Source: Candidatus Nanoarchaeia archaeon
GTDB taxonomy: Archaea; Nanobdellota; Nanobdellia; Pacearchaeales; GW2011-AR1
Direction of reading: 5' to 3'
DNA length: 64,000 nucleotides
Assembly (NCBI GenBank): GCA_028711165.1
Contig: JAQTST010000001.1
Location: forward strand, 78,708-142,707
The notes under the pieces were generated by a model, which saw only the letters and a program-made list of their open reading frames with translations, was not told where the DNA came from and made no database searches. Within the stretch, counting starts at the first letter, position 1. Each line of letters opens with the position of its first letter. Made by a program: the position numbers and the translations under genes. Shown one piece after another: positions 13,605 to 20,224 of this stretch.

Positions 13605-14024
13605 TTATCTAATTCCCAACCTCTCCAATTTATTCTGAACATGATTGAACAGCGTCGATGAAACAATCGGCTGATGTGTTCCTTCGTGAATTTGGTTATT
13701 GAATTTTATTTTTCCGATATAAGTAAAATTTTTTAGGATTTTTTTTAGTCCATTCACAGAAAGATTATGCTTTTCTGCCAGAGTTCTCAGACTTAAGTTA
13801 TTATTCAAAAACGCTTCGAATATTTCTTCAATTTCGCGAAAGTTTTGCGCAGGAATTAATTTGCCGTCGGAGATTTGATAGCCGAAAGGAGCACGCGACA
13901 TAAGATTTCCGTGCATTGCTTTTTCAGACATAGATTTTTTTCTTGTGATATGAATTGATTTTAATTTTTCAATTTCTTTTTTCAGTTCCTCATTTTCTTT
14001 TCTTAAATCTTCAAGCTCGCCCAT
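13605..14024 (-). CDS. Recombinase-domain protein lacking the serine-recombinase catalytic domain (coiled-coil N-terminus)
   Basis: ..APFGYQISDGKLIPAQNFREIEEIFEAFLNNNLSLRTLAEKHNLSVNGLKKILKNFTYIGKIKFNN..HQPIVSSTLFNHVQNKL aligns with the C-terminal halves of 15239..15859 and 15849..16613. There is no YSRVS-type catalytic motif. Confidence 0.65.
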   Translation of the reverse strand: MGELEDLRKENEELKKEIEKLKSIHITRKKSMSEKAMHGNLMSRAPFGYQISDGKLIPAQNFREIEEIFEAFLNNNLSLRTLAEKHNLSVNGLKKILKNFTYIGKIKFNNQIHEGTHQPIVSSTLFNHVQNKLERLGIR

Positions 14025-14128
14025 TCTTTTCTGAATGAAAAAGAAGTTTAATTATTTTCGGTTTGTAATTAGAGAAGTGTACAAAATGTTTAAATAGTAT
14101 TTCTATTTTTATTAACCATTCAATTAAT

Positions 14129-15235
14129 ATGAACGACAATTCTGCAAGTGTAGCCAAATCAGAGGATGAACCTCCCAATCCGGCGATAGAGCCTGGAGGT
14201 ATTGTCTCGGCTGATCAGGTTTCTGGCATTTCTAAATTAAACAAAGATAATTTGAAGAAAATTTTTGACAAATATCCTGTCAGAATTACAAATTATTATT
14301 TCTCGCTGATTAAAGAAAAAGACGACGGTGTTTACAAACAGTGCATTCCGTCGATGGAAGAAATTTCTGATTTGGGGGGGGAGGAAGATCCGCTAAATGA
14401 GGAACCCGAACACCAGGTAAGACAGGGGGTTCCGTCGCTGTTGACGCACAGATATCCCGACAGGGTTCTATTTAGAATTTCAAATTCATGTGCGATGTAT
14501 TGCCGATTCTGCACGAGGAAAAGAAAAGTTGGAGATGTAAATAAACAGCCAACCTGGAAAGAAATTGGAAAGGCTTTGTTGTACATTCAGGAGCATGGAG
14601 AAATCAGAGATGTTATTCTTTCGGGCGGAGATCCGCTGATGCTTCCTGACAAAACACTTGACAAAATTTTGGCAGCAGTTTATTTAATAATCTCTAAAAG
14701 AGAAAACGGTATTATAAGAATAGGGACGAGGATTCCCTGCGTTTTGCCTCAGAGGATTACCCAAGAATTGTGTGATGTTCTAAAAAAGTATCATCCTATT
14801 TATCTGAACACGCATTTTAATCATCCTAATGAAATAACTACTGAAAGCAAGAGAGCTTGCGGGATGCTGGCTGACGCGGGAATTCCTGTCGGAAATCAGA
14901 CTGTTCTTCTGAAGGGAGTCAATGATAATCCTGAAATTATGAAAGAACTTATGCAGAGACTGATTAGTATTCGAGTCAGGCCGTATTATATTTATCAGTG
15001 CGATCCTGTGAGGGGAGCGAACCATTTTAGGACAAGGGTTGAGAAGGGGTTAGAAATTTACAAAGCATTAAGGGGACACACTTCTGGGTTGTGTGTTCCT
15101 CATTTTGTAATCGACGCACCGGGCGGAGGAGGGAAAATTCCACTACTTCCAGAATATCTGCAGACAATTACCGACGAGAAAGTTGTAATGAAAAATTACG
15201 AAGAAAAAGAATTTGAATATATTCAAGCGGATTAG
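14129..15235 (+). CDS. Lysine 2,3-aminomutase family radical-SAM enzyme (KamA/EpmB-like)
   Basis: CAMYCRFCTRKRKVG (CxxxCxxC in the KamA context), GGDPLML and ..YYIYQCDPVRGANHFRT... It is visibly more G+C-rich than its neighbours. Confidence 0.8.
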   Translation: MNDNSASVAKSEDEPPNPAIEPGGIVSADQVSGISKLNKDNLKKIFDKYPVRITNYYFSLIKEKDDGVYKQCIPSMEEISDLGGEEDPLNEEPEHQVRQGVPSLLTHRYPDRVLFRISNSCAMYCRFCTRKRKVGDVNKQPTWKEIGKALLYIQEHGEIRDVILSGGDPLMLPDKTLDKILAAVYLIISKRENGIIRIGTRIPCVLPQRITQELCDVLKKYHPIYLNTHFNHPNEITTESKRACGMLADAGIPVGNQTVLLKGVNDNPEIMKELMQRLISIRVRPYYIYQCDPVRGANHFRTRVEKGLEIYKALRGHTSGLCVPHFVIDAPGGGGKIPLLPEYLQTITDEKVVMKNYEEKEFEYIQAD

Positions 15236-15238
15236 TGA

Positions 15239-15859
15239 TTAAACACTCAACTTATTCTGAACCTGTTCAAACAGCTGTTTGTCAATGATTGGCTCGTGCT
15301 GTCCGTCGCTTTCGTGGTTCGCAAATTTAACTTTTCCGAGATAAGTTGTGTTTTTTAGCAGTTTAATCAAACCTGACGTCGTTAGATTGTATTTTTTTGC
15401 TAACTGAGTCAGAGAGATATTTGAGTTGAGAAATTCTTCGAAAATGTTTTTTACTTTTGCAGATTCTTCATCATGTTTAATCAGCTGTTTGTTTAAAAGT
15501 TTGTAACCTTTTGGTGCTTTGGTTATATGCCTTCCTTTTTTGAAAGCAGTATCCATCCCAAGTTTTGTCTTTTTAGAAATTGAGTAATCTGATTTTCTGA
15601 AGGTGTCTAATAATTTGCTGTCTATTTTTTCAGACAAATATTTTTTGAATTCTTTTTCTGAATCAGGAGCATATTTGTGGCATATTGAACATAATGTTGA
15701 AAGATTTGATGATTCATTTAATCCATTGAATATCTTTGGGTTTATATGATGTACTTCAAGATTTTCTCCGCTCGGGTCTTCAAAACCACATTTCTGGCAT
15801 TTGAAACTGTCTCTTTCTAAAATTTTTCTGATTAATGGAAGAGGAAGATTATTCTTCAT
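15239..15859 (-). CDS. HNH endonuclease domain fused to a recombinase DNA-binding domain
   Basis: N-terminus CQKCGFEDPSGENLEVHHINPK..LSTLCSICHKY (HNH with CxxC pairs). C-terminus APKGYKLLNKQLIKHDEESAKVKNIFEEFLNSNISLTQLAKKYNLTTSGLIKLLKNTTYLGKVKF..HEPIIDKQLFEQVQNKL. Confidence 0.7.
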   Translation of the reverse strand: MKNNLPLPLIRKILERDSFKCQKCGFEDPSGENLEVHHINPKIFNGLNESSNLSTLCSICHKYAPDSEKEFKKYLSEKIDSKLLDTFRKSDYSISKKTKLGMDTAFKKGRHITKAPKGYKLLNKQLIKHDEESAKVKNIFEEFLNSNISLTQLAKKYNLTTSGLIKLLKNTTYLGKVKFANHESDGQHEPIIDKQLFEQVQNKLSV

Positions 15860-16613
15860 TTATTTTATTATTAGCCTGATTAAACAGCTGTTCGTCAATT
15901 ATTGGCGGCTGTTTACCATTGTACAACCCTCCTTTATATCTTATTTTCCCAATATAGATAGGGTTTTTGACTATTTGATAAAGCGCAGATGAAGAGAGAT
16001 TAAATTTATTGCATATATCTTTGTAATTAATTCCTGCAATCCACATTTCAAAAATTTCCCTGACTTTTTCTGAATTTTCTGGATGTTTGATTAGTTTTTT
16101 ATTTTGGTAAGTATAACCAAAAGGGGCGCGATATAATGCTTCCCCAAGATTTATTTTTCTGTCAAAGGATAATTGAACTCTTTCTTTCACCATTCCTCTT
16201 TCAAGCTGGGCAAAAACTCCAATAATTTGAAAAAATGCTTCTCCCATTGCAGATGTCGTGTCAATTTGTTCTGTTACAGAAGTAAAATTAATTCCCTTAG
16301 ATTTCAAGTCTTCCAGTATTGTAATCAAGTCTTTTAATTTTCTTGAGAACCTATCTATTTTGTAAACTAAGATTATATCAAATTTTTTTTCTTGCGCATC
16401 TCTGAGTAATAATTCTAAGGCGGGCCTGTCCAAGCTTCCTGCAGAGAATCCTGCATCTTTGTAAACTTTGAAAACTTCCCAACCTCTTGCTTTGCAAAAA
16501 GATTCACATTTATCTATCTGGGCATCGACACTTAAACCTTCTTTTGCCTGCTCTTCTGTTGAAACTCGAGAATATATTGCAACTCTCGGAGTTTTATTGT
16601 TCTCTTTTATCAT
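15849..16613 (-). CDS. Serine recombinase (resolvase catalytic domain + recombinase domain; no zinc-ribbon/coiled-coil tail)
   Basis: VAIYSRVSTEEQ (catalytic Ser context), ..LVYKIDRFSRK.., ..TSAMGEAFFQIIGVFAQLERGMVKERV.., then an APFGY..YIGKIRY.. recombinase module. Confidence 0.85.
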   Translation of the reverse strand: MIKENNKTPRVAIYSRVSTEEQAKEGLSVDAQIDKCESFCKARGWEVFKVYKDAGFSAGSLDRPALELLLRDAQEKKFDIILVYKIDRFSRKLKDLITILEDLKSKGINFTSVTEQIDTTSAMGEAFFQIIGVFAQLERGMVKERVQLSFDRKINLGEALYRAPFGYTYQNKKLIKHPENSEKVREIFEMWIAGINYKDICNKFNLSSSALYQIVKNPIYIGKIRYKGGLYNGKQPPIIDEQLFNQANNKINEE

Positions 16614-16746
16614 TTTCTTGTAAACTTAGGGGTTTTTCTTCCTGTAAGGGTTCCCTTCCTGCTATGATTTTATAACCTTATTGGAAAATAAGTATATAAA
16701 TATTGTGTTAAATAGAGGAAAAGATGAACTTTTCCCACAAATTTTT

Positions 16747-16827
16747 CGGAATAATTCTTTAGTGGCTGGCGAGGGTTGTTCACTGACGTACACTCGCTTT
16801 GCTCGTGCACTAAGGTTAACTTAGTTA
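16747..16827. promoter_or_regulatory. Operator-like inverted-repeat element, copy 1 (shared arms with 17594..17647)
   Basis: CGGAATAATTCTTTAGTG-[41 nt G+C-rich]-GTGCACTAAGGTTAACTTAGTTA. Arms TTAGTG/CACTAA, with a quasi-palindrome CTAAGGTTAACTTAG. Confidence 0.45.
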
Positions 16828-17133
16828 TTAAGAATGAGAAATATATTTTACAGGGTAAGTTTTTTCTTTTTCCGGATAAACAAAAAATATTTCATCTTTT
16901 ACTAAATCAGTCAATTTATTTTTGTTTGTTGGGAGTTGAACTATTCCCAAATCTTGATTAGTTTCGCTTGCTTCAGAGAACATGTAAGAAATTTCTGTTG
17001 GTCTATATCCCAATAGATGATATTGATTATCTGATTCAAATCTTCCTATAAACATTTCTGTTATCTCTTCTGACTCTGGAGGGTATTTTGTTTTAATAGC
17101 ATGATAACCATATGCAATATCTGGATGAACCAT
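16828..17133 (-). CDS. Hypothetical protein (101 aa)
   Basis: ATG-started ORF with no motif recognised. Confidence 0.4.
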   Translation of the reverse strand: MVHPDIAYGYHAIKTKYPPESEEITEMFIGRFESDNQYHLLGYRPTEISYMFSEASETNQDLGIVQLPTNKNKLTDLVKDEIFFVYPEKEKTYPVKYISHS

Positions 17134-17191
17134 AAAGAAAAATATAAGAATAATTATTTAAAGATTATTGTGATTTTTTGATAGTTGTATA

Positions 17192-17536
17192 CTAAGGTTT
17201 GCTTTGTGAATGGGCAAAATTTAATATTTTTATTAAACGTGATTTTTCTTTTTCTAGCTGATTTACTCTTTTTTCAGCATCTTCGAGATCATAACTTAAT
17301 TGGTCCTGTAAATTTCCTGGAGATAAATCATGATTATCATAGTCTAAACCACATTTTGGGCATTTAATTAGTACTTCATTGTATGGGCCAACATTAACTA
17401 GTCTTCTTGTTAAAAAGGTTTGATCTAATGGACATTTTATGTCTATTAATTTCTCATCTTCTTTCAAACAATATTCTTCAGATTTCCCGTCTAAATTTAT
17501 GAATTTTACGGTTTTTTCACTTCGATATTTTACCAT
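17192..17536 (-). CDS. Zinc-ribbon plus C-terminal coiled-coil protein (hypothetical)
   Basis: CPLDQ..(23)..CPKCG followed by ..LEDAEKRVNQLEKEKSRLIKIL.. Confidence 0.45.
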   Translation of the reverse strand: MVKYRSEKTVKFINLDGKSEEYCLKEDEKLIDIKCPLDQTFLTRRLVNVGPYNEVLIKCPKCGLDYDNHDLSPGNLQDQLSYDLEDAEKRVNQLEKEKSRLIKILNFAHSQSKP

Positions 17537-17593: not shown

Positions 17594-17647
17594 CGGAATA
17601 ACTCTTTAGTGCTTGGCACCAGTTGTGCACTAAGGTTAACTTAGTTA
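17594..17647. promoter_or_regulatory. Operator-like inverted-repeat element, copy 2
   Basis: CGGAATAACTCTTTAGTGC-TTGGCACCAGTTG-TGCACTAAGGTTAACTTAGTTA. It lies upstream (minus sense) of the 17192..17536 gene and its TATA-like CTTTAAAAATAA. Confidence 0.45.
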
Positions 17648-17655
17648 AAATAGAT

Positions 17656-17764
17656 AAACACCTGTTTAAACAGGCAAGCTTAATAGTAAACAGTTGTTTG
17701 CCTCTGTTTAATGCTGTTTTAAACAGGTGTTTTACAATTTTTTTGTGTTTAAACAGGTGTTTTT
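17656..17764. repeat. Iteron-like repeats with core AAACAGGTGTT / AAACACC half-sites, including the perfect 14-bp palindrome CCTGTTTAAACAGG
   Basis: AAACACCTGTTTAAACAGG (17656-17674), GTTTTAAACAGGTGTTTT (17716-17733) and GTGTTTAAACAGGTGTTTTT (17745-17764). Confidence 0.7.
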
Positions 17765-17859
17765 GAATAGAATAGGAAGAAGATTTTATTGAGCATAATT
17801 ATAGATGTTTGTCGTCGGAGAAACAAAACATTTTTAAACTATATTTTGTAAAATATATT

Positions 17860-18471
17860 ATGTTTGGCTGGTTTTCCGGAAGAAGAGAGATTGATAATAT
17901 AAAAGATGAAACAAAAAAAGGTTTTGATTCTGTAAAAAAAGATATTAGTTCGGTCAGTGGTTGGATTAAACACCTTGATTCTGAAAAAAATTTGCAGAAG
18001 AAAGAAATTGCTGAACTTAGAGAAGTTTTATCGTCGATAAAAAATGATGTTGAAGGATTGAAAAATGTAATTGCTGTGATGAATGAATTAAAAACAAACA
18101 GGGTGTTTAAAACACCAACACGTGTTTCTAAGAAACAAACAGGTGTTTATGCTGTTCAAACAGGTGTTCAAACAGGTGTTCAAACACCAAATTTAAGCCA
18201 ATTTTCAGTAACTGAAAGAGCAATTTTATGGATATTATTAAACAGTGATATGAAATTAAGTTATGATGATTTGGCAGCTATGTTGGGGAAAGAGAGATCT
18301 ACTATTAGAGGGCAAATTAATACAATAAAACAGAAAAGTGAGATAATTGAAGAAGAAGTAGAAAAGAATGGTAAAAAGAGAGTATTTATACCTGAAGAAA
18401 TCAAAGAAAAGATGTTAAAAAAGACAAAAGTGAGAGTTGGAAACAGTAAAAATAACAGAAAAGATGAATAA
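17860..18471 (+). CDS. Coiled-coil + (QTGV)n linker + winged-helix DNA-binding protein (hypothetical regulator or initiator)
   Basis: First ATG of track ORF 17809..18471. C-terminus ..FSVTERAILWILLNSDMKLSYDDLAAMLGKERSTIRGQINTIKQK.. is wHTH-like. Paralog of 18666..19373. Confidence 0.55.
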   Translation: MFGWFSGRREIDNIKDETKKGFDSVKKDISSVSGWIKHLDSEKNLQKKEIAELREVLSSIKNDVEGLKNVIAVMNELKTNRVFKTPTRVSKKQTGVYAVQTGVQTGVQTPNLSQFSVTERAILWILLNSDMKLSYDDLAAMLGKERSTIRGQINTIKQKSEIIEEEVEKNGKKRVFIPEEIKEKMLKKTKVRVGNSKNNRKDE

Positions 18472-18665
18472 AAGTCAATAAAATATTCCAAAGTGAGAGT
18501 TTTTGGAACTAAAAATAAATTAAAAAATTGAATCAAAGTGAGGATTAAATAGGAAATAAAAAAGGAGGAGTTAGATAAAAAAGAAAAAGGTAAAAATGTG
18601 TTTATACAGAGAAAAGAAAGAGTTAAGTTAATCGGTTAACCGAAAATGTAAGTATTTGAAATATT

Positions 18666-19373
18666 TTATAGAGATCTAAGCTGGAAAAGTGTAGGTAATG
18701 GTGCAATTTTCTTTAACTTTTCAGAAACAGAGAGTTGAATCATCTTATTATTTATTTTTGTTTTATCGACGGGAATTCCTTTTTTTATGAGCTTTCCAAC
18801 ATAATCCCTTATAGAACTCTCTGTCAAATTAAGCTTCAGGGAAATGCTCTTATAATCCGCATAACCAAACTCTTCTTCAATTTGATATATCGTCGAGAAT
18901 ACTAAAAATTCCTGATCTGTAATTCTCTTGAACTTATTCCTTATTTCTTTTTTCAAATTATCTAAAGAACTTAAAACCTCAATAGCATTATTAAAAGAGG
19001 CTTTTTCTGTTTGTTGGTTTGTCTGTTGGTTTGTCTGTTGGTTTGTCTGTCTGTCTGTTGGAACCCCTTCATTTCCAGTGGAAAAGGCTTGATTTTGCTC
19101 TTTTAGAGGCTTAAAAGGATAGTTATGTGTTGGAATATCTGTTGGATATGTTGGATTTTGGATATTATGTGCTGGGTTTTGTGTTGGGATTATTTCCTCT
19201 TTTTTAGAGGTTAAATCAGATAATTTAGAGAATAAATCTTTTAGATTTTTATCTATGTCAGCAAGCTTTTCTTTATTTTCATGCAAGAACTGATTTAATA
19301 AATTAACCTCGCTGTTTATAGAATCTATATCTTGTTTTACTTTTTGAAAAGCATTTTTAATTTGCTCATCCAT
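18666..19373 (-). CDS. Coiled-coil + (QTNQ)n linker + winged-helix DNA-binding protein (paralog)
   Basis: The N-terminal coiled coil is similar to the previous gene. It has a 12-nt tandem repeat at 19008..19062. C-terminus ..ITDQEFLVFSTIYQIEEEFGYADYKSISLKLNLTESSIRDYVGKLIKKGIP.. Confidence 0.55.
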   Translation of the reverse strand: MDEQIKNAFQKVKQDIDSINSEVNLLNQFLHENKEKLADIDKNLKDLFSKLSDLTSKKEEIIPTQNPAHNIQNPTYPTDIPTHNYPFKPLKEQNQAFSTGNEGVPTDRQTNQQTNQQTNQQTEKASFNNAIEVLSSLDNLKKEIRNKFKRITDQEFLVFSTIYQIEEEFGYADYKSISLKLNLTESSIRDYVGKLIKKGIPVDKTKINNKMIQLSVSEKLKKIAPLPTLFQLRSL

Positions 19374-19404
19374 CTTAACATAAATAAAAAGCCAGTATAA
19401 AAAA

Positions 19405-19716
19405 TTAAGTATAATTTAGAGAATTATTTTGATTCTGGAAAGAAGATTGATGTTTTTTATAAGCCTGATAAGCGCTGTCTGTGAGCTTCCATCTTGATCT
19501 TTTTAGGTAAGGAAAACCAGCAGGATTTTTTTTAATCTCAACTACCAGCTCTTTCTTTTTTAATTCAAGAAGGAGAGTTTTTACAAATTCTTCATCCCTG
19601 GCAATTTCAACAGCAATATTCAATGTAAATAATGCCTTGGGAGAAATAGAATAAAGATAAGCAAGAATCTGTTCGTATATTTTTTCCCTTTTTTGCCTGG
19701 AAATTTTCATATACAA
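19405..19716 (-). CDS. Small winged-helix protein (hypothetical)
   Basis: ..REKIYEQILAYLYSISPKALFTLNIAVEIARDEEFVKTLLLELKKKELVV.. has a wHTH-like pattern. Confidence 0.4.
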   Translation of the reverse strand: MYMKISRQKREKIYEQILAYLYSISPKALFTLNIAVEIARDEEFVKTLLLELKKKELVVEIKKNPAGFPYLKRSRWKLTDSAYQAYKKHQSSFQNQNNSLNYT

Positions 19717-19792
19717 AAGAATAGACTTGATTTTTTAAAAGTAATGATAATATAATCCCGTGTTTCTATATAAGAATAAATATTAAGAAAAA

Positions 19793-20224
19793 TTACTGGC
19801 TTTCTTTTTCTTCGGTTTTCTTTTGAGGACTTAAAGAAGGTAAAGGAATATGATAAGGCAATCCTAATTCTTCTTCTAATTCAAGAGCTTTTACGTTGGA
19901 TTTTTTAAGAATTAAGTTGAAAATAGATGTCCTGAAATCATCTGAAGTCTGCTTTTCTTTCCAGCCTTTTATAATATCTTTAGCCATTTTAGAATCAACA
20001 GAAAGAATAAAATTACCGGCAAAGTCAATTTTAGCAAGTTCAGGTTCAAATGATAAAGTATAAACAAAATCAACTTTTATTAACTCATCCTTGGTTTTTA
20101 GAAGTTCATTCTTTAAAATATCTATAGAAGAAATATCCATTTTTGTGTTAAATTTTATATTGTCTGCCCTGTCTTTGAATCTTTCAACACTTATTTTAGT
20201 AAAATTAAAATTTACAAGCTTCAT
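19793..20224 (-). CDS. Hypothetical protein (143 aa)
   Basis: ORF with ATG start and no motif recognised. Confidence 0.4.
   Translation of the reverse strand: MKLVNFNFTKISVERFKDRADNIKFNTKMDISSIDILKNELLKTKDELIKVDFVYTLSFEPELAKIDFAGNFILSVDSKMAKDIIKGWKEKQTSDDFRTSIFNLILKKSNVKALELEEELGLPYHIPLPSLSPQKKTEEKESQ

Follow-up and report, generated by a model that had tools for sequence, protein, structure and literature searches.

A nanoarchaeal chromosomal locus with a truncated serine recombinase, its candidate site and a predicted HNH nuclease carrying a recombinase domain, in the slot of XerA/dif

Introduction

To our knowledge, all known systems for the resolution of chromosome dimers use tyrosine recombinases (XerCD, XerS, XerH, XerA), serine resolvases carry out dimer or multimer resolution for plasmids and transposons only, and no serine-recombinase dimer-resolution system has been described in any cellular chromosome. 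In the Tn3/gamma-delta res and RK2 parCBA systems, the site of the serine resolvase lies in its own promoter or leader, so that the operon is autoregulated, and the RK2 operon of the resolvase ParA also contains a gene for a nuclease, the SNase-like ParB. Here we analyze a locus in a 64,000-nt stretch of the genome of a Candidatus Nanoarchaeia archaeon (assembly GCA_028711165.1, contig JAQTST010000001.1, positions 78,708 to 142,707; hereafter, the window), in which three minus-strand genes encode a serine recombinase (Res-Rec), a predicted HNH nuclease (HNH-Rec) and a small coiled-coil protein (CC-Rec) that share a C-terminal Recombinase (Rec) domain. The three genes appear to be part of a conserved chromosomal site-specific recombination locus. 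The explanation that we favor, and to which we assign about an even chance, is that a truncated serine recombinase and a single-copy palindrome displaced XerA/dif, with HNH-Rec as a co-translated, dispensable accessory nuclease of its own specificity and CC-Rec as a nuclease-less descendant of HNH-Rec.

The window comes from a near-closed 637-kb genome, and profile and synteny comparisons were run on its relatives. Protein-identity lookups and two collection scans yielded ~130 related loci, hosted by ultrasmall Nanoarchaeota in metagenome-assembled genomes (MAGs) labelled Pacearchaeota or Woesearchaeota, and six genomes of the same family were fetched (G249, G291, G300, G031, G281 and G085). 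Across the ~130 loci, the gene order is fixed: Cdc6(-)/PRC/p143/p103/h235/h220(-)/variable small open reading frames (ORFs)/~100-nt leader/Res-Rec/HNH-Rec/variable/CC-Rec/variable/S9(-)/L13(-).

Results

A truncated serine recombinase

Res-Rec (Table 1) has the catalytic domain, alphaE helix and Recombinase fold of the large serine recombinases (LSRs) A118/LI, Bxb1 and phiC31 (PDB 4kis, 9dxh, 9iu8), and its PF07508 match (residues 178–253) follows the alphaE helix. The protein ends at residue 254, where LSRs run on into a zinc-ribbon/coiled-coil domain; the domain profile search detected no zinc ribbon in it, and its orthologs are 243–297 aa long. Unlike LSRs, Res-Rec also lacks a coiled-coil motif, an attP/attB pair and a mobile-element context, and the coiled coil, if any, comes from the separate paralog CC-Rec. 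Nor does it belong with the small serine recombinases, HTH_7 being matched only at E 0.043, under the cutoff, and the C-terminus being PF07508. Residues Y14, R16, S18, D87, R88 and R91 are invariant across 104–107 orthologs. We regard Res-Rec as a truncated LSR-type enzyme with an intact set of catalytic residues, as predicted from its sequence. The orthologs, found in ~120 loci, are 57–87% identical, and Res-Rec (65–87% identity) is conserved to the same degree as S9 and Cdc6. As a minimal recombinase of ~250 aa with a short, defined candidate site, described below, Res-Rec would be attractive for mechanistic study.

A single-copy palindrome in the leader

The leader of the Res-Rec operon is among the conserved parts of the locus, with a DNA identity of 72–86% in nearly all loci, and it keeps its position when extra genes sit between it and Res-Rec. 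Besides a CCCCTAAGTTTAC element (16620–16632) similar to a dif half-site or to the M motif described below, it contains a palindrome of the general form (T)AAGGG-[AA or TT]-CCCTT(A), usually located 45–58 nt ahead of the ATG across loci. One copy is present upstream of Res-Rec in ~100 of the 120 loci, and the pattern is found only 109 times in 980 kb. The window genome contains a single copy, and of 32 other Res-Rec-type genomes, 29 likewise have exactly one. Loci with divergent recombinases in the Res-Rec slot (40–45% identity) carry a different palindrome, TTAGGG-[CA/TG/TT]-CCCTAA, at the same leader position; the palindrome co-varies with the recombinase type.

The polarity of serine recombinase crossover sites comes from a non-self-complementary 2-bp center. 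Across ~115 sites, which are not independent of each other, the center of the palindrome is never AT, TA, CG or GC, so that the candidate site of Res-Rec has a non-palindromic central dinucleotide, as do those of LSRs. The AA and TT centers that alternate between close relatives are the same pseudo-palindrome seen from opposite strands, and this points to a site that acts as DNA and is bound by a dimer rather than to an RNA element. On this ground, and for lack of an Rfam match and of significant folding, we rejected the idea that the leader or M contains an RNA element. By analogy with dif, the palindrome is a candidate binding or crossover site of Res-Rec. A duplicated ~20-nt att core that seemed to flank insertions at the start of Res-Rec was also discarded, as an artefact of A-rich gene starts; the inserted genes are the first genes of the operon.

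The arrangement recalls the Tn3 and RK2 resolvases in that the candidate site lies in the recombinase's own leader and a nuclease gene lies in the same operon. It differs from them in that Res-Rec has an LSR-type Recombinase domain rather than a small HTH_7 domain, no three-subsite res organization is evident at the leader, and, in comparison with RK2 ParB, the nuclease is an HNH domain fused to a Rec domain in a chromosomal, archaeal context.

Alternation with XerA/dif at the same slot

A profile search of the window genome found no PF00589 gene, and no dif-like site was found there. The six same-family genomes all have the synteny of the window. In G249, G291 and G300, the slot of Res-Rec is filled by a divergent serine recombinase; in G031, G281 and G085, it is filled by a 275–282-aa XerA (NF040815, 225–246 bits vs a cutoff of 220). 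In G031 and G281, both of which lack Res-Rec, the slot XerA is the sole tyrosine recombinase of the genome.

The XerA-type loci carry a 28-bp dif-like site, ACTTCGTACAA-N6-TTGTGCGAACT, with 11-bp inverted arms and a 6-bp spacer, and dif-like half-sites lie 14–35 nt ahead of the xerA ATG. G031, G085, G281 and G218 each have a single copy of the full site, which lies 0.05–3 kb from xerA, the four adjoining sites representing four genera of one family (Table 1). Nine Res-Rec-type genomes and the window genome lack this site. The sites at the XerA loci match the published dif criteria, and in Sulfolobales, too, dif lies near xerA (PMC2958812). They probably represent the first candidates for dif in this DPANN group.

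Res-Rec and its candidate site thus stand in the slot that holds XerA/dif in sister genera, and therefore would most likely have displaced Xer/dif in this lineage. As in the archaeal XerA/dif system (Cortez et al. 2010, PMC2958812), there is one recombinase and one unique inverted-repeat site per chromosome, and the site is near the recombinase gene, as in Sulfolobales. The differences are that Res-Rec is a serine recombinase, that its candidate site is a 12–14-bp palindrome with a 2-bp asymmetric center rather than an 11+6+11 arrangement, and that accessory HNH and Rec-module proteins accompany it. Of the hallmarks of Xer/dif, the Xer tyrosine recombinase is missing from the window genome, and the single inverted-repeat site (5–6-bp arms, 2-bp center) corresponds to dif by analogy only.

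From domain architectures, residue conservation, synteny, the uniqueness and co-variation of the site and the alternation with XerA/dif, we infer the biochemical activities, protein-to-site assignments and dimer-resolution role that make up the following scheme. The cognate site of Res-Rec would be TAAGGG-AA/TT-CCCTTA, present as a single copy in its own leader. A Res-Rec dimer bound to this palindrome would autoregulate the operon, and, when a chromosome dimer forms, Res-Rec would recombine the two copies of the site, as in Xer/dif or plasmid res/resolvase systems. The broader proposition, in which chromosome dimers are resolved by a truncated LSR-type enzyme and a 2-bp-centered palindrome that displaced XerA/dif in situ, with HNH-Rec and CC-Rec as accessories of whichever recombinase occupies the slot, is advanced only tentatively, at rather less than an even chance. 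If true, the replacement of XerA/dif in situ by a serine recombinase with its own site would provide a clean natural case of non-orthologous displacement of a core chromosome-maintenance function, and it would explain how some DPANN genomes live without any tyrosine recombinase.

Several observations weigh against the displacement of XerA/dif. A PF00589 gene is present elsewhere in 37 of 44 genomes with Res-Rec orthologs, and among 301 genomes of the phylum, the absence of Xer is weakly enriched in Res-Rec carriers (11/41 vs 29/260, p = 0.011). Res-Rec therefore is no clean genome-wide substitute for Xer, and in genomes with both enzymes, its role may be another one. The XerA-like genes outside the slot are 39–47% identical to the slot XerA, lie in unrelated contexts and are not accompanied by this dif-like site. 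The locus lies ~4.5 kb from cdc6 and the putative origin, at no demonstrable terminus; GC skew, positive throughout, was uninformative as to origin and terminus. Furthermore, the window-type Res-Rec is 62–71% identical to genes in other GTDB families (f13, f17, f24, f25, f48, f73 and f90), which hold its nearest relatives among species representatives and thus point to lateral transfer. Because the representatives of the window's own family have a slot type that is 41–46% identical, or XerA, the slot has been refilled laterally at least twice. Finally, the palindrome could be an autoregulatory operator and nothing else. A plain genome-wide replacement of Xer was rejected given the weak anticorrelation; what holds is the alternation at the level of the slot.

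The turnover of the recombinase type in the slot and the kinship of the window-type Res-Rec with other-family genomes could also be read as signs that the whole block descends from a plasmid or virus integrated long ago, with Res-Rec as its integrase. In line with this, the block p103/h235/h220/array/Res-Rec/HNH-Rec adjoins Lhr instead of Cdc6 in two loci (L003 and L004). We consider this origin highly improbable, given that no flanking att duplication was found and that there is a single palindrome per genome, that many species retain the same neighboring ribosomal and replication genes, the locus being conserved like core genes, and that the slot's tyrosine recombinase, a XerA equivalog accompanied by a dif-like site, is not the integrase of a mobile element. 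The companion genes had no PHROG or viral match, PHROGs and PADLOC returned nothing past generic integrase and HNH models, and a viral or plasmid origin of the locus was rejected when IMG/VR yielded only generic LSR Rec-domain matches at 24–40% identity.

HNH-Rec, an HNH domain joined to a recombinase module

The initial annotation had described the three genes as paralogs with swapped N-terminal modules, and domain profile searches bear this out. The three minus-strand ORFs are where it had placed them (Table 1), and they are the only PF07508 genes of the 637-kb genome. The shared C-terminal module is PF07508 in all three, scoring 34.6 (CC-Rec), 37.1 (HNH-Rec) and 45.2 bits (Res-Rec) against the curated Pfam cutoff of 21.1 bits. 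The Resolvase catalytic domain is confined to Res-Rec, an HNH domain takes its place in HNH-Rec, and the N-terminus of CC-Rec is a heptad-like stretch of ~20 residues with weak bZIP/HALZ matches. NCBIfam models align the three C-terminal parts with the alphaE/Rec region of the large serine recombinases CcrA, CcrB and XisF. The modules are mutually 36–44% identical over 104–112 aa (BLASTP E 1e-18 to 3e-26), and their DNA identity is low (64–83% over 42 nt), which marks them as old paralogs. The direct repeats reported to bracket a KamA-like gene proved to be two of these coding modules. The bracketing is without significance; KamA was found at this slot, between HNH-Rec and CC-Rec, in the window and in none of the ~130 related loci, and is window-specific cargo.

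The combination of HNH and Recombinase domains, which the initial annotation could not place, defines a genuine, conserved and uncharacterized family. HNH-Rec relatives form 431 clusters at 90% identity, are ~205 aa long and 53–87% identical to the protein of the window, and nearly all match both PF01844 and PF07508; an exhaustive search gave ~13 full-length representatives at 50% clustering (E<1e-30). In databases, they are named HNH endonuclease or recombinase family protein and come from Pacearchaeota and Nanoarchaeota MAGs. No full-length HNH-Rec was found on the viral contigs of IMG/VR, and no description of the family was found in the His-Me finger classification or the other literature searched. 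The sequences thus point to a previously undescribed family of HNH nucleases with a recombinase DNA-binding domain.

HNH-Rec has the beta-beta-alpha metal finger, catalytic His, Asn, metal-binding His and two CxxC pairs of the HNH (His-Me finger) nucleases, and the set CxxC..HH..N..CxxCH is kept at 87–100% in 40 orthologs. In an AlphaFold (AF2) model (pLDDT 86), the N-terminal half matches McrA/Gme-type HNH domains, the C-terminal half has the LSR Rec fold (4kis, E 6.5e-7; also 9dxh, Bxb1), and the helix preceding the Rec domain aligns with the end of the LSR alphaE helix. Because of this combination of Rec fold, alphaE remnant and HNH N-terminus, HNH-Rec is in effect a serine recombinase with its catalytic domain swapped for HNH. 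The best sequence match of the HNH domain is IscB (NF040563, E 2.5e-12; PDB 9k2z, E 5.7e-10). IscB is defined by a split RuvC, a PLMP domain and omega RNA, whereas the 206-aa HNH-Rec aligns with it over the HNH segment only (NF040563 positions 186–263, 46.6 bits vs a cutoff of 175), shows no RuvC domain in a domain search and has no Rfam RNA family in its region. HNH-Rec is a compact (~205 aa), protein-guided nuclease architecture whose specificity module belongs to a family already engineered as LSR integrases.

HNH-Rec follows Res-Rec in 53 of 65 loci in which Res-Rec reaches 70% identity and is absent from the other 12; it is present in 2 of 19 loci with Res-Rec at 60–70% identity. The 11-nt overlap of the two genes, noted at the outset, is confirmed and is the commonest arrangement in relatives (18 loci), where the overlap usually measures 11, 8, 4 or 1 nt. 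The strain-level comparisons contained no near-identical locus pair differing by HNH-Rec alone. Probably, HNH-Rec is an active HNH nuclease or nickase that is co-translated with Res-Rec.

Divergence of the Rec modules and origin of CC-Rec

The Rec modules were compared by a maximum-likelihood tree that included the Rec domains of phage LSRs. The Res-type modules form a clade (support 100/99) on a long branch, the HNH and CC modules form another (98/88), and the phage LSR domains fall between the two. The recognition helices differ as well: in Res modules, the helix reads S-T-x-Y-Q (Y165 at 100%), and in HNH and CC modules, G-x-K-K (G163, K165 and K166 at 84–100%). CC modules (99/93) are sister (96/98) to a subset of HNH-Rec modules, named type B. 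The loci L027 and L086 are placed differently in the Res and HNH parts of the tree.

HNH/Rec accessories also occur beside XerA. In G281, a 126-aa IscB-like HNH-only gene (L236:9543-9923, minus strand) runs 14 nt into the 3' end of xerA; we know of no described XerA-HNH gene pair. The same genome has a CC-Rec (71% identity) near S9, and in G031, the genes after xerA encode a HAD hydrolase and, next, a Rec-module protein. The accessories therefore belong to the locus and not solely to the serine recombinase.

These findings bear on two proposals of the initial annotation, namely that the DNA-recognition module of the HNH protein is borrowed from the recombinase encoded beside it and that cutter and recombinase share one target specificity. 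The separate clades and the long branch between them leave the borrowing unsupported. A shared target, with HNH-Rec cutting, for example, empty or unrecombined sites as TnpB and IscB do for their transposases, could draw on the overlap and co-inheritance of the two genes, on the closeness of the HNH domain to that of IscB and on the TAAG core common to the palindrome, the leader element and M. We nevertheless judge it very improbable: the modules are ancient paralogs (~35% identical) on separate long branches, the recognition-helix signatures differ, the accessories also accompany XerA, whose site is unrelated, in genomes that are devoid of the serine recombinase, and HNH-Rec has no RuvC domain and no detected guide RNA. 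Under the reading that we favor, the anciently diverged Rec module of HNH-Rec would aim at a different sequence, possibly the TAAG-containing M repeats or related elements. HNH-Rec would be an accessory rather than a core component, given its loss or inactivation in some lineages and the stand-alone HNH gene without a Rec module next to XerA in G281.

The pairing of HNH-Rec types with CC-Rec was counted in 32 loci with the whole Res-Rec-to-S9 interval visible. CC-Rec accompanies type-A HNH-Rec (14/0) and is mostly missing with type B (1/11; p = 1.6e-6), five loci have CC-Rec without HNH-Rec, and exactly one protein of the B/C lineage of Rec modules is present in 31 of the 32. The N-termini of CC-Rec relatives take three forms, a coiled coil, a four-Cys scaffold with a linker, and a short CxxC ribbon; the four-Cys form is clearly homologous to HNH-Rec, yet lacks the HH..N core. 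Because this series includes a degenerate HNH zinc scaffold, CC-Rec appears to be a derivative of HNH-Rec with the nuclease inactivated or replaced. Nuclease activity thus seems dispensable, while nearly every genome keeps one B/C-lineage Rec protein, and CC-Rec is probably a DNA-binding regulatory or architectural factor. The series from active nuclease through zinc scaffold to coiled coil documents the conversion of a nuclease into a DNA-binding factor.

A nuclease joined to a DNA-binding module is the architecture typical of free-standing HNH homing endonucleases, and HNH-Rec, as a His-Me finger nuclease with a sequence-specific module, shares it with them. The N-terminal forms, in which the nuclease is active, inactivated or replaced, recall the life cycle of homing endonucleases, and the 12 of 65 close loci without HNH-Rec, the discordant placement of L027 and L086 and the invasion of the same locus by a LAGLIDADG endonuclease gene in one of two 99%-identical relatives (see below) would fit such a cycle as well. 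HNH-Rec could accordingly be a selfish homing-type gene sitting by a conserved target, with CC-Rec and the zinc-scaffold forms as decaying or domesticated remnants and with no partnership with the recombinase. This strikes us as unlikely. Unlike in homing endonucleases, the DNA-binding module is a serine-recombinase Rec domain after an alphaE remnant, and HNH-Rec is translated together with a recombinase and has been conserved by vertical descent over the long term. Dozens of species keep the gene overlap and the translational coupling, and the intact catalytic set at 55–87% identity suggests long-term purifying selection. The regular presence of a single B/C-lineage Rec protein, the overlap of an HNH gene with xerA in G281 and the failure to find the family on viral contigs also speak against a selfish gene.

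M repeats and gene flux

The region between h220 and the recombinase contains, at each locus, 2–5 copies of a 26-nt element, M, whose consensus, TTAACTAAGCTAACCTAAGTGCACAA, derives from 121 distinct copies. Nearly all hits lie in this region, with 148 on the gene strand vs 14 on the other, and the core of M occurs twice in the window genome. One copy precedes each small ORF by 75–120 nt, upstream of the ORF's own TATA-like box, with a spacing of 320–430 bp. M-like copies are also found in XerA-type loci, and distant loci have diverged M variants or a different repeat. One locus (L088:3951-4791) has no detectable M and carries in its place four copies of a 33-nt repeat, AAAGTTTTTAGCAAAAACCCAAAGTTTTAGCAT, the last three ~400 bp apart; since the repeat stands where M would be, this suggests that the repeat co-diverges with the proteins of the locus. 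An inverted half-site, CACTAAA, seen after M in the window was dropped from consideration, as it follows only 4 of 30 first copies.

Some of the small ORFs are shared (family F0 recurs in 11 loci) and others are unique; their content varies by species and strain. Between L104 and L109, a cassette swap is bounded by an M unit and the leader. Elsewhere, the leader-proximal slot holds genes for HAD hydrolase, LigT-like ligase, P-loop, HD and kinase-like proteins. Given these strain-level swaps, insertions and diverse slot genes, the locus is a gene-flux hotspot, a rarity in extremely streamlined genomes.

A recombinase beside tandem short variable ORFs in the same orientation, with a repeated element between them, is also the layout of integrons, including archaeal ones (Ghaly et al. 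2022, PMC9668308). The recombinase, with HNH-Rec and CC-Rec, might accordingly recombine the direct M repeats to shuffle small cassettes in an integron-, IMEX- or dif-module-like manner. Such a capture platform would account for the strand bias and regular spacing of M, for the differences in small-ORF content between species and strains, for the cargo of further variable slots (KamA, MGMT-like, HAD, LigT and kinase-like) and for the extra dif half-sites among the small ORFs of XerA-type loci. We rate it as distinctly unlikely. Whereas integrons have attC folds, 7 of 8 M units folded no more stably than shuffled controls (z -0.95 to +0.97), and M lies, operator-like, upstream of each ORF's own promoter. 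M stays the same under either type of slot recombinase, tyrosine or serine, and this fits poorly with M as a substrate of one or the other. The breakpoints of strain-level swaps equally fit homologous exchange via the conserved M and leader arms, and insertions at the leader begin at the ATG, not at a recombination core. Integron membership itself was rejected, as the window has a serine recombinase and the slot XerA (275–282 aa) lacks the IntI-specific additional domain and matches TIGR02249 at 184–218 bits (cutoff 265), in two stretches. We favor M as an operator for a DNA-binding protein encoded in the locus, either a Rec-module or a winged helix-turn-helix (wHTH) protein, over M as a recombination site.

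Two strain-level differences are described here in their own right. Relative to L112 (position ~5004), L110 (141–998) has an additional gene, for a 285-aa LAGLIDADG_2 homing endonuclease (PF03161, E 1e-19), placed exactly where the leader ends and the Res-Rec ATG begins; the flanks are 99.2–99.8% identical, and the initial codons of Res-Rec have also been exchanged, in the manner of co-conversion. Between L106 (6941–9428) and L107 (6941–8255), the whole segment from the CC-Rec stop to the S9 stop differs, the sequence upstream being 100% and that downstream 99.5% identical. The segment encodes ORFs of 373 and 371 aa in one locus and a single ORF of 407 aa in the other, none with a Pfam match.

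Other features of the locus

Table 1 Features of the locus in the window and dif-like sites in related loci
Feature	Position	Strand	Description
CC-Rec	13605..14024	-	139 aa; short coiled coil and B/C-lineage Recombinase domain; PF07508 E 2.3e-8
KamA-family radical SAM gene	14129..15235	+	Slot between HNH-Rec and CC-Rec; TIGR00238 286 bits, over cutoff
HNH-Rec	15239..15859	-	206 aa; IscB/McrA-like HNH, helical linkers including alphaE remnant, type-A Rec domain; PF01844 E 2.8e-9, PF07508 E 3.9e-9
Res-Rec	15849..16613	-	254-aa serine recombinase; catalytic domain, alphaE helix, Recombinase domain; PF00239 E 3e-41, PF07508 E 1.2e-11
Leader of Res-Rec operon	16614..16711	-	~100 nt; TATA-like box, palindrome, CCCCTAAGTTTAC element
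Leader palindrome	16646..16657		AAGGG-TT-CCCTT (gene strand AAGGG-AA-CCCTT); 33–44 nt upstream of Res-Rec ATG
M copy 3	16805..16830	-	~190 nt upstream of Res-Rec ATG, just ahead of leader
Variable slot 1	16828..17536	-	Two small ORFs, 101 aa and 114 aa (zinc ribbon)
M copy 2, degenerate	17187..17209	-	Upstream of 101-aa ORF
M copy 1	17625..17650	-	Upstream of 114-aa ORF; gene-strand consensus TTAACTAAGCTAACCTAAGTGCACAA
Companion block	17809..20224	h220 +; h235, p103, p143 -	h220 and h235, coiled coil and wHTH; p103; p143; syntenic in Res-Rec-type and XerA-type loci
dif-like sites	L234:3655-3682; L235:8891-8918; L236:10785-10812; G218:C1:334-361		Adjoin xerA; four genera of one family

The two small ORFs of variable slot 1 are missing from most relatives, and the 101-aa ORF is common to L074–L076 only. 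In the closest relative (L001:6615-6917), the operon contains, between HNH-Rec and CC-Rec and with a 4-nt overlap on each side, a gene for a 100-aa protein consisting of the DNA_binding_1 (MGMT DNA-binding) domain only (PF01035, E 1e-29).

The small contigs of the window genome were rejected as episomes. One of them, the 5.6-kb C4, has ends that overlap the two ends of the 623-kb contig C3 at 94–98% identity; because C4 bridges these ends, the chromosome is probably closed, as a circle of ~628 kb. The other three are of foreign composition (C1, GC 0.51; C2, GC 0.44, with a 504-aa ORF; C5, GC 0.59) and are probably mis-binned.

Two stretches of the window, 17649–17768 and 18137–18183, stand out by AAACAGGTGTTT repeats. 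Together with a palindrome (CCTGTTTAAACAGG), these repeats are located between M copy 1 and the start of h220, and they recur in the h220 coding sequence, where they encode a (QTGV)n linker. The repeats and the CCTGTTTAAACAGG palindrome may be operators for wHTH proteins.

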